From Curvularia clavata (taxonomy: Eukaryota): a stretch of 64,000 bases of DNA. The translations under genes and the position numbers were made by a program. Below, one piece after another: positions 290 to 4,200 of the stretch (positions within the stretch are counted from its first letter, which is position 1; every line of letters begins with the position of its first letter). The stretch covers positions 868,001-932,000 of the forward strand of contig CP089278.1 of assembly GCA_023920165.1 (NCBI GenBank). Reading direction: 5' to 3'. Below the pieces are notes generated by a model. That model had not been told where the DNA came from. It was given only the letters and a program-made list of their open reading frames with translations, and searched no databases.

Positions 290-1084
290 ATGACCGAAGC
301 AGCTGGTCTGGCAGTCAGTGCCGTTGCCCTCGCTAGTCTTTTCAACAATACCATCGAATGTTTCGAATTTGTCCAGCTCGGCTGTACATTTGGAAAGAGC
401 TTCCAGACCAGTCAACTTAAGCTCGATAACGCAAGGCTCCGCTTATCCCGATGGGGCAAGTCCCTGGGTCTGGATGATCAGGATGTTCGAGAATCGACAT
501 CGCTCAAGAGAAATCTTGCCTCAAAAGAAAATGTCGGCCAGGCTGAGGCGCTGCTGGGTCAGATTGTAGAGCTGTTCGTGGAAGCGGAAGGAGTGTCGGA
601 GAAATATAAGAGTCGGAAAGCGCCTCAAGGCAGCTTGGCGGTGTACAACCCTCAGACTGACTTAGACCCGTCTGGAGCCAAACTTCATGAGAAGATGCGT
701 CAGCTATCTATCGAGCGTCAGAATTGTTCAGGTATAAGGAAAAAGGCAAAGTGGGCATTGTACCAGGAAAAGCAGTTTCGCCGGCTGATTGAGGATATCA
801 CGGACTTGGTCGACGGATTGGAAAATCTCTTTCCCGCTGCTCAGCCTTCTCGGCGTCAGCTCTGTGACGCTGAAGTATCTATCCTTGAGGAAGGCCTGGA
901 AGGCGAAGCCATGTCGGTGTTGAAAGACATCACCGCTGCCCAGGACAAATTATTGGAGCAGGCTATCACGGAGAGTGGTGCAAAATCATACCATATTGCT
1001 TTTTCTGGTAATGGTAACTGTGGTTTTCAGCTAGGCCACAACTCTGGTACGATTTCCGGCATCACCTTTGGAAGAGATAGTTGA
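290..1084 (+). CDS. HeLo-domain (HET-S-like) cell-death effector with C-terminal PP-type amyloid signalling motif (HELLP-like architecture), 264 aa, single exon
   Basis: ATG at 290. N-terminus MTEAAGLAVSAVALASLFNNTIECFEFVQLGCTFGKSFQTSQLKLDNARLRLSRWG aligns without gaps to the HET-s/HET-S N-terminus as I recall it (LFNNCVDCFEYVQLGR.FG...LRLDIAKARLSRWG). The HeLo motif KAKWALY..KQFRRLIEDITDLVDGLE is present. C-terminus is FSGNGNCGFQLGHNSGTISGITFG. Confidence 0.92.
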   Translation: MTEAAGLAVSAVALASLFNNTIECFEFVQLGCTFGKSFQTSQLKLDNARLRLSRWGKSLGLDDQDVRESTSLKRNLASKENVGQAEALLGQIVELFVEAEGVSEKYKSRKAPQGSLAVYNPQTDLDPSGAKLHEKMRQLSIERQNCSGIRKKAKWALYQEKQFRRLIEDITDLVDGLENLFPAAQPSRRQLCDAEVSILEEGLEGEAMSVLKDITAAQDKLLEQAITESGAKSYHIAFSGNGNCGFQLGHNSGTISGITFGRDS

Positions 1085-1289: not shown

Positions 1290-4200
1290 CTAACTGAACG
1301 TTCCTTGTCTGTTCAGCTCCAAGCCCGCAGGCGCAGTACCGATCCGGTCGGCCAATTCCTTTTCCTGAGCACGAGCTTTCAACTCGTCATCCAGTCCCGT
1401 GCTTCTCTTCCGCAGCGGACTAGTAGCATCAGCTGCGCTGTCGTCGACATCGAGCTCCTTTTCCTTGCGTCTAGCTGTTGCCATGCTAGCGACGCTTGAA
1501 TCATCACCGTCATTCTTCTTTGTACGCTCGCCTTCGCCATTGTGTACCTCAATAGTGACGTCGGTGTTGTCCTTGCTAAAGACACGCAGGCCAACAACAC
1601 AAACCGCATTCCAGGGATCACGCTCAAACTCATCCTCCTCTTCAAAATAAGGGTACCTCATGCCATTGTACCAGACATAGCGTGGTTTGTGCTCGGAGAA
1701 ATCGTTTAGGAAGTCGTCTTTGTCTCCGCAGATGCTAGAGTCAAGCGAGCAGGGGCCATCGATCTCTGAATCCCAGGATGAGTCGTCAGAGGTATCGTTG
1801 AGATATTCAAAGCCGTCTTGAGCCCGGTGAGAGAACTCGCTTGTGCTGAGTCCAGGACTAATCTGGATACCAGGTCGCACACCAGGAATTGGTGTAAGAG
1901 TGGCACGCCGCGATGAAGCCGGAGAGCGGCGCGGGCTATGTGTTCGTTGAGGCTGGAGATCGTCGATCATCGTAGGGGTGGGGGTAGAAAGAGGTGTAGG
2001 AACAGGTGATTCCGTCATTTGGGTCTCATTGTACCCGTCGCGGCCATTGTAACCATCGCGACCTTGATACGCACCGGGAAGCTCTGCGTTGTAACCACCT
2101 CTTCCTTGTAGTTCACCTGGCATATTTTGGTTGTAGCCTCCTCTGCCTTGAAACTCCCCAGGCATGTTCTGGTTGTAACCACCTCTTCCCTGGAATTCTC
2201 CAGGCATGTTCTGATTGTAGCCTCCCCGCCCTTGGAAACCCTGGCTGTGGTGACCAGGCGAGCCTTGTGGACTAGAGTTGTAGCCGCCCCGCCCTTGAAA
2301 GGCGAGTGTTTCAGCCACGCTTGTGCCACTGCTCTCACGGTTGTAGCCACCGCGGCCTTGACGTGCGCAAGGCACAGCAGCATTGTAACCATCTCGGCCC
2401 TTGTTGTAACCACCTCGACCGCCGAAACCACCACTAGCACTGTCTGATCGCTCACGAACAGCACCAGTGCTGGCCGCACGATGATGCCGAGTAACGGCCT
2501 GATGCATGGGCTTCGGTTCCTCTTCGCCAGATATTCTCGCTTCTTCATCAACATTGATACCAAGTCCAGGGAGGTTCTGCAATTTCCTTGCGACTTCTTG
2601 TATCTCACCAGAGCGGTGCAGTCGGCGGTTCTCCTTCTCGGCCTTCTTCTTGTCGCGGAGCTCGTCTCGCTTGCGCATCCTCTTTCGGCGCTCATGTGAG
2701 AGCTTCAACTCAGCCTTCTTGAGTTCAATACGCTCCTGCTTCTCGCGCGCCTGCTTCTCCTTCTCTTGCTCTCTGAACTGACCCTTGGCATGAGAAAGGT
2801 CGTAGGACAGCCCGATAGACAGAAGCTTTTCGCGGCGCTTGGTGCAGGTTGCCCTGATGACCTCATCAGGGGTTGGGTTCTCTGGGACTCTTGTAGCCTT
2901 AATCTTCAGCAAGACGGTATAATTGCCAGCTTCGAGCTCAAGCTCTGTCGAGACGGAGCGCTTCATGTAGTATGTTCCATTGCTGCGGACAATGTACTCC
3001 TCTTCGTCATCTTTATGTAGGCGAAACTGCAGGGAGAACTCATATTGTCCCTCGAGGCCCTGGTAATAGCGATCGTCCAGCTGGCTCAGTACGATGACAA
3101 CAGGTCCACCCTTTGCAAGATGGATCTTGAACTTGGTGTCCAGGTAGTCGACGCTCCAGGGAACGTTCACGCTCGTCCATTGCTGCGAGACCGTCCATTC
3201 TGGACCGAACAGCCTGGTGCGGTCAAGGTGTTGATAGGTGCGCAACAAGTCTTTGTAAGAAATCCAGAAGACACCATCATCGCCAAACTTGTGGTTGAGC
3301 TTCTGCATCCACTCGGGGGTCCACTCTTCGGATCCATCGCTCCAGGCTCCGGTCCATTCAGTTCGGCCCCAGGGGTTGCGCAGCTTCAACAAGCGCTGGC
3401 CGTCTATCTCGCGAGCCTCCATGATAGAGTATGCATGTTTTTCCTGGATGCCTTTTCGTGAGCCATAAATGCCACCCATTTGTCCACATCCAAAAAGGAA
3501 GGTCTTGTTGACATTCATGAGCTCTTCTCGCCAAAACTGGTCCTTGTCGAGGATGTCGGTGGTGAAGACCTCCGATGTAACACCTCCAGTAAGATCTTCG
3601 ATGCCCTCGCCGACGAACCCACCATCAATGGCACTGTAGTCGCCATGGGCTTTGGCAAAGGCCTTCTCCAGGAGAGGAAGCCAGGTCTCATTGGGATCGC
3701 TGCACTGAGCAAAGTACAGCGCTCTTGAGCCGGTCTGCATCACAGCACGGTATTCATCCTCTGGGCTTTTGCGGTTCTGCAACTCCAACCATTGGAGGCG
3801 CTCACGCTTTGCTTCATCAAAGTCCTCTTTGATGAGATACAGTTTGTCGTCGATGACTTCCGAAATCCACTCTCCATCTGTGCCACATTAGCTTACTTCC
3901 AAAGACCTTCCTGCAATGGAGACTTACCTCGGTGGAAAACGAAGCCATATACGCCGACCTTTTCATCGCGAGCGACACAGACTCGTTGGATCAGTCCTTC
4001 TTTGTTCGATATCGTCGCCAACGCTGACATGAACCAACAGTCGCCGTCATTGCCTTGACGTACATCGTTTGCTGTTGCGCCCTCGATGAAGAACTGTGGA
4101 TTGTCGAAAATGTCCTACAACAATCAGTGGGTGGCCTTATGAGGATGCCGAGATACACACCTCTACTCTCTTAACTGACTGAGGGTAAAAATTCGTCTTT

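Follow-up and report, generated by a model that had tools for sequence, protein, structure and literature searches.

The window analysed here is a 64,000-nt stretch of the Curvularia clavata genome (G000:C5:868001-932000), the first base of which is position 868001 of contig C5. Near its left edge, a single-exon open reading frame on the forward strand (290-1084, +) encodes a protein of 264 amino acids, P0001, in one open frame. This protein combines an N-terminal hydrophobic helix region (residues 1-33; 290-388, +), a HeLo domain (residues 6-199; 305-886, +) and a PP amyloid-signalling motif (residues 238-255; 1001-1054, +). A partner NLR gene, modelled as two exons encoding 719 amino acids with a PP seed, a P-loop NOD and TPRs, lies on the opposite strand just outside the window (C5:865770-867982, -). 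The two genes are arranged head-to-head with their start codons 308 nt apart, and positions 1-289 are the in-window part of this spacer, which presumably contains a shared bidirectional promoter and the leaders of both genes.

Downstream of the HeLo gene, a convergent calpain-family gene occupies window positions 1290-3887 (-; Peptidase_C2, E 2e-42); its C-terminal region carries about ten Gln/Gly/Arg/Tyr/Asn-rich repeats near 2040-2420. A patch of about 130 nt past the HeLo stop (1168-1299) has 15 listed differences from the contigs of sequencing runs X1 and X2, and in part from those of X5 and X6. Outside this patch, the neighbouring gene is nearly identical to the X1 and X2 contigs up to nucleotide 2000, and the divergent patch is possibly a haplotype boundary.

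The HeLo effector and its neighbouring NLR

The Pfam HeLo model (PF14479) spans residues 6-199 of P0001 with an E value of 2.8e-51 (174.7 bits against a cut-off of 23.2), and the only other Pfam match at E≤1 is Ses_B. Sequence matches in the PDB are limited to three HET-s/HET-S HeLo chains. An ungapped alignment with the HET-s HeLo chain covers residues 1-65 and places T33 opposite P33 of HET-s and H33 of HET-S. An AlphaFold model built from a 106-sequence alignment (pLDDT 68, pTM 0.66) has four PDB fold matches at E≤0.001, all of them HET-S or HET-s HeLo chains, with TM scores against 2wvo/2wvn of 0.68 by query and 0.80-0.84 by target. The first-pass annotation had described a HET-S-type HeLo protein with a gapless N-terminal alignment and a threonine at position 33, and the domain search, the alignment and the fold bear this out. 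Residues 1-33, which include E23, C32 and T33, are the counterpart of the membrane-inserting segment of HET-S, and their likely role at the membrane is read from that protein (PMC3531502).

Residues 232-264, including the PP motif, are modelled with low confidence, the motif being unstructured in the monomer; this speaks neither for nor against amyloid. Ses_B (PF17046), which we take to be the Pfam model of the PP motif, matches residues 233-257 with 32.7 bits against a cut-off of 23.2. Some 35 residues follow the HeLo fold and hold a single motif; the coordinates proposed for this tail were correct, as F238 begins at nucleotide 1001 and G261 ends at 1072. The tail agrees with the published PP consensus FxGx(x)NxGLQLxGxNxGxL (PMC3321046, section 8) and is nearly invariant across 106 aligned homologues. 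Across all six frames, the window has a single occurrence of N-x-G-[FLIVM]-Q-[LIVM]-G-x-N, and 200 base shuffles yielded none. The two 21-residue HET-s/HRAM repeats are absent from this tail, as are the submotifs A and B whose three-fold repetition defines sigma (by eye against the definition), and the Pfam scan of P0001 returned no match to NACHT_sigma or SesA. The tail is thus of the PP type, as first proposed, rather than a two-repeat HET-s domain. A sigma assignment, prompted by the Pfam name Ses_B, was dropped on the motif definitions. Like other PP tails, that of P0001 would be expected to form amyloid.

In a search of the genome with the Ses_B model, all six scored candidates fell at E≤10, and one of them (C5:867914-867958, -) lies to the left of the window. 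This match belongs to the NLR, whose in-frame ATG (C5:867982, -) is 19 bases from base 1. The N-terminus of the NLR holds a motif homologous to the effector tail, without an effector domain. Its 719-residue model contains no internal stop, and the Walker A and B motifs are intact once a 53-nt GT..AG intron (C5:867694-867746, -), which falls inside the Walker A codons, is removed. In run X2, one contig lacks precisely these 53 nt; X2 is only guessed to be RNA, and this contig, which has nearby differences, could represent an allele or a paralogue. The second exon matches TPR_12 (E 2e-33) and TPR_10 (E 1e-32). Scanned separately, the exons gave no NB-ARC match and a NACHT match at E 0.02, and close homologues carry precomputed PF00931. 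In three runs that are guessed, but not recorded, to be RNA, low-depth contigs with zero or one difference cover parts of the second exon; cover of the HeLo gene in these runs is zero, which says nothing about its expression.

The earlier statement that the window holds no partner NLR is therefore literally true, but the NLR begins 19 bases beyond the edge and is missing because the edge cuts the locus. Of the NLR or lipase partners suspected to the left of base 1, the NLR was found there and a PP-bearing lipase was not: a PP-pattern scan of 94 kb (C5:838001-932000) revealed neither a lipase nor any third PP-bearing open reading frame. Since only the motifs of these two genes were found, the locus is a two-gene pair. 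The alternative that P0001 is an orphan effector is refuted by the adjoining, head-to-head NLR with its PP seed.

Recurrence of the pair and other candidate amyloid-type loci

Of 1938 candidates, 277 are homologues of P0001 of similar length at E≤0.001. Excluding P0001 itself, the best 119 are 58-73% identical to it; most have both domains, and those with species names are largely from Pleosporales. Eighty metagenome loci were fetched and 18 close ones examined, 15 of which have at least 300 nt upstream of the HeLo gene. A PP-like NLR seed lies head-to-head on the opposite strand in all 15 (nine found by pattern, six by reading frames), although several of these loci are near-duplicates and the independent count is therefore below 15. 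Relatives include broken copies, with early stops in the HeLo gene of L040 and L042. Two database entries, P0051 and P0188, have NLR TPRs running straight into HeLo-PP sequence, and these fusions may be artefacts of gene calling or assembly or may reflect a tandem arrangement.

This recurrence bears on an account of the locus in which the G/N/Q-rich end of P0001 arose by chance and the two genes are unrelated neighbours. Short motifs can arise randomly, and the NLR seed scores below the Pfam cut-off; however, the effector tail scores above it, is absent from the shuffles and hardly varies among homologues, and the reciprocal motif recurs with the same layout at all 15 loci with enough upstream sequence. 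Conservation of both motif and gene order refutes this account, which is considered extremely improbable.

The same genome encodes a second intact pair on contig C7 (C7:953122-956565; L012:119-3565), consisting of a HeLo-PP gene and a PP-NLR-TPR gene, with a HeLo protein 71% identical to P0001. The C7 pair is more canonical than the C5 pair, and the TPR_12 score of the C5 NLR (115 bits) is about half that of the C7 NLR (216 bits). A weak HeLo-like match (L006) lies 10 kb from the C7 pair.

Several other loci in this genome have arrangements suggestive of amyloid signalling. At about 708-711 kb of C3 (L003, L016:7106-10000), a HeLo gene is head-to-head with a NACHT NLR and shares with it a single motif that is, by eye, neither PP, HRAM nor sigma; the HeLo tail has no Pfam match. 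In related loci (L044-L069), the motif reads roughly F-N-N-x-x-S-K-I-G-x-Q-V-G-x-x-x-V-x-G-x-Q-x-F, and it was seen in the HeLo tails of 11 of 17 loci scanned (often past an intron) and in three NLR N-termini. It may be a candidate amyloid-signalling family, or could match a motif already published. P-loop NLRs at C1 ~485 kb (L110), C3:1987 kb (L112) and C4:4371 kb (L111) carry a PP-variant seed with the core G-x-Q-[AG]-G-I-I-N-G, and the head-to-head neighbour of the C1 gene is a PigL_N (HeLo-like) gene with a matching variant at its end. Two pairs resembling het-S/nwd2 (L004, C7:2794 kb; L005, C3:474 kb) have a HeLo gene head-to-head with a NACHT NLR and longer HeLo tails that appear by eye to contain two repeats.

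Condition of the C5 copy

The first-pass annotation had taken Thr33 as a sign of an active protein. HET-s becomes HET-S-like only when both D23A and P33H are introduced (PMC3531502), and position 23 of P0001 is Glu, as in most of the family (104 of 118); neither position 23 nor position 33 is therefore diagnostic, and the claim was overstated. An odd residue is Cys32; Arg occupies this position in 116 of 119 homologues and Cys in none. A run-X6 contig across codon 32 does not confirm it, as it carries one difference, the site of which is not listed. In all, P0001 departs from its relatives at nine columns with a conservation of 90% or more, including R32C and R146C (the median is four departures, and 19 of 120 sequences have at least nine). 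The best 19-residue stretch of its N-terminal helix has a hydropathy of 1.48 compared with a median of 1.75, making it the fifth least hydrophobic of 117.

The NLR of the C5 pair has an altered start. In related loci the distance from the start ATG to the codon of the first core Gly is 48 nt (12 of 15 loci and the C7 copy) or 39 nt (3 of 15). The C5 ATG that aligns with the C7 start is 49 nt from this codon and thus out of frame, and the in-frame ATGs are at 33 and 24 nt. A one-base shift of the usual start has thereby shortened the seed, and an out-of-frame upstream open reading frame of 15 codons (C5:867951-867998, -) overlaps both in-frame ATGs. The upstream context of the first in-frame ATG is nearly that of the C7 NLR start. 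Misassembly was set aside as an explanation of the shift on slight grounds: an X6 contig of depth 2.1, from a run of unproven independence, reads through both ATGs without a mismatch or gap. At C5 ~867900 the NLR lacks the intron that comes first in relatives, together with one codon; the junction retains a short word resembling both intron ends, which would fit a microhomology-mediated loss. Among open-licence papers, none was found that joins fungal NLRs, upstream open reading frames and amyloid signalling.

In the remaining seed (residues 5-22; C5:867917-867970, -), Ala replaces the second core Gly, and the Ses_B score of 18-20 bits is below the cut-off. Among 120 NLR protein hits, the second core Gly is kept in all 18 pattern-matching motifs; 90 of the 120 are without a complete Walker A, mostly because the first exon is missing. 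At the 15 genomic loci this position is Gly in 12, Ala in two and Arg in one, so the Ala of the C5 seed is unusual but not unique, and four of the 15 have Pro or Ser beside the Gln. Over 18 residues, the effector tail is identical to the seed of its neighbour at seven and to that of the C7 NLR at 11, and tail-seed identity in five related pairs is 8-12 of 18.

Substitution rates were estimated with purpose-written codon-model code. The HeLo fit (14 sequences, 260 codons) excluded the early-stop copies L040 and L042, cut copies and the near-duplicate L036; it gave a terminal-branch omega of 0.146 against a background of 0.174 (p 0.42 for the difference; omega=1 rejected, p ~1e-19). The fit for the NOD part of the NLR (seven sequences, 297 codons) excluded loci that were shorter than 250 codons or not recovered (L032, L034, L040, L041, L104) and gave 0.153 against 0.135 (p 0.55; omega=1 rejected, p ~2e-17). 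Both genes are under long-term purifying selection at the background level, with omega ~0.15, although such values average a long branch and are blind to recent loss. A long-term pseudogene is ruled out by the omega of both genes.

These features invite a reading of the C5 locus as a once-functional pair in decay, in which the NLR is poorly translated or has a bad seed, the HeLo protein has ceased to kill, like HET-s, or both, and the C7 pair is the active one. The substitutions R32C and R146C, the weak N-terminal helix, the one-base shift past the usual start, the halved TPR scores and the loss of a first intron retained in the C7 paralogue and the compared relatives would all fit decay, as would the existence of broken relatives. 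Against this, the two genes are open throughout their 264 and 719 codons, omega is at the background level in each, the new in-frame ATG has nearly the context of the C7 NLR start, seed variants are common in relatives, and 3 of 15 loci also have a shorter leader. Decay is therefore regarded as fairly unlikely.

A functional HeLo protein might instead be triggered mainly in trans by the C7 NLR, its own neighbour being damped or silent. The closer match of the effector tail to the C7 seed points this way, and PP regions that are 36% identical cross-seed between species, albeit less efficiently (PMC7885112, section 11). Yet the neighbouring NLR is intact and under purifying selection, and within-cluster PP identities of 32-48% are reported as normal (PMC7885112), a figure for a longer region that is only roughly comparable with 7 of 18; activation mainly in trans is thus very unlikely. 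It is quite unlikely that the pair is a damped, cross-wired signalosome in which the upstream open reading frame throttles translation of the NLR, the seed has drifted and the HeLo protein heeds mainly the PP receptor on the other contig; if true, the two pairs would constitute an amyloid network of two receptors and two effectors with a translational brake.

Relation to known signalosomes and proposed mechanism

The C5 pair falls within a described class that is distinct from HELLP, HRAM and sigma. In 2012, genes for PP-extended HeLo proteins were reported next to NB-ARC-TPR STAND genes in Arthroderma (PMC3321046, section 8). The pairs of Arthroderma otae and A. gypseum likewise combine a canonical HeLo domain bearing a short, non-HET-s C-terminal extension with an NB-ARC-TPR STAND protein bearing a homologous N-terminal extension, and do not differ in architecture from the C5 pair. 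Arthroderma is of another fungal group, the nearest named homologues of the C5 effector being from Pleosporales, and the C5 copy differs in its shifted NLR start and shortened seed. With this combination in print since 2012 and 277 homologues found, it is not unusual. PP motifs are described at 296 NLR N-termini, together with pore-forming and enzymatic effectors, in the preprint 10.1101/2022.03.16.484565.

PNT1/HELLP of Podospora anserina and Chaetomium globosum also places a PP-NB-ARC-TPR receptor beside a PP-tailed, membrane-targeting effector (PMC7885112, PMC12881547; available parts), in P. anserina as a two-gene cluster like the C5 pair. HELLP has a HeLo-like domain, whereas the C5 effector is a canonical HeLo protein (with HeLo and Ses_B alone at E≤1). 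A further difference is that a lipase partner (SBP/sesB) was not found near the C5 pair. HET-S/NWD2 of P. anserina resembles the C5 pair in its HeLo domain, both in sequence (phmmer E 8e-34) and in fold (Foldseek E 4e-11), and in its adjoining NLR, and templated activation would be a further likeness (PMC3531502, PMC5485727). HET-S, however, has two HET-s repeats rather than one PP motif, and NWD2 is a NACHT-WD40 receptor rather than a P-loop/TPR protein. The sesA/sesB/het-eN sigma system of Nectria haematococca likewise has an N/Q/G-rich motif on the effector tail and the NLR head, but the sigma motif repeats GxGxQFN and GGTQNINT submotifs three times (PMC3321046), and these are absent from the C5 pair.

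The C5 pair is probably a PP-type two-gene fungal amyloid signalosome, with a killing activity suggested by analogy with these systems. By extension from HET-S/NWD2 and HELLP/PNT1, binding of a non-self ligand to the TPRs would cause the NLR to oligomerise; its clustered PP seeds would nucleate an amyloid that templates the PP tail of the effector; and the HeLo domain would then refold, releasing its N-terminal helix into the plasma membrane of the fungus itself and killing the cell compartment. P0001 might additionally answer to the second PP NLR on C7. The PP-triggered mechanism has been tested for HELLP/PNT1 (PMC7885112, available parts). Killing is proposed with caution. The nine departures from conserved columns, the weak N-terminal helix, the shortened and divergent NLR seed and the out-of-frame ATG before the NLR start all weigh against the proposed mechanism, and the PP effectors tested in the literature available are HeLo-like (HELLP) rather than canonical HeLo proteins; a search of the open-licence literature, in the parts available, found no experiment on a canonical HeLo-PP protein, and absence of such work is not claimed.

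As one more member of a common set of fungal immune modules, the C5 pair changes little. Because PP-triggered killing has, in the sources available, been tested only with HeLo-like effectors, a canonical HeLo-PP pair nevertheless provides a simple test of whether amyloid motifs and pore domains are freely interchangeable. With its two related PP pairs, this genome also permits a direct test of whether signalling amyloids are insulated from one another or engage in cross-talk.
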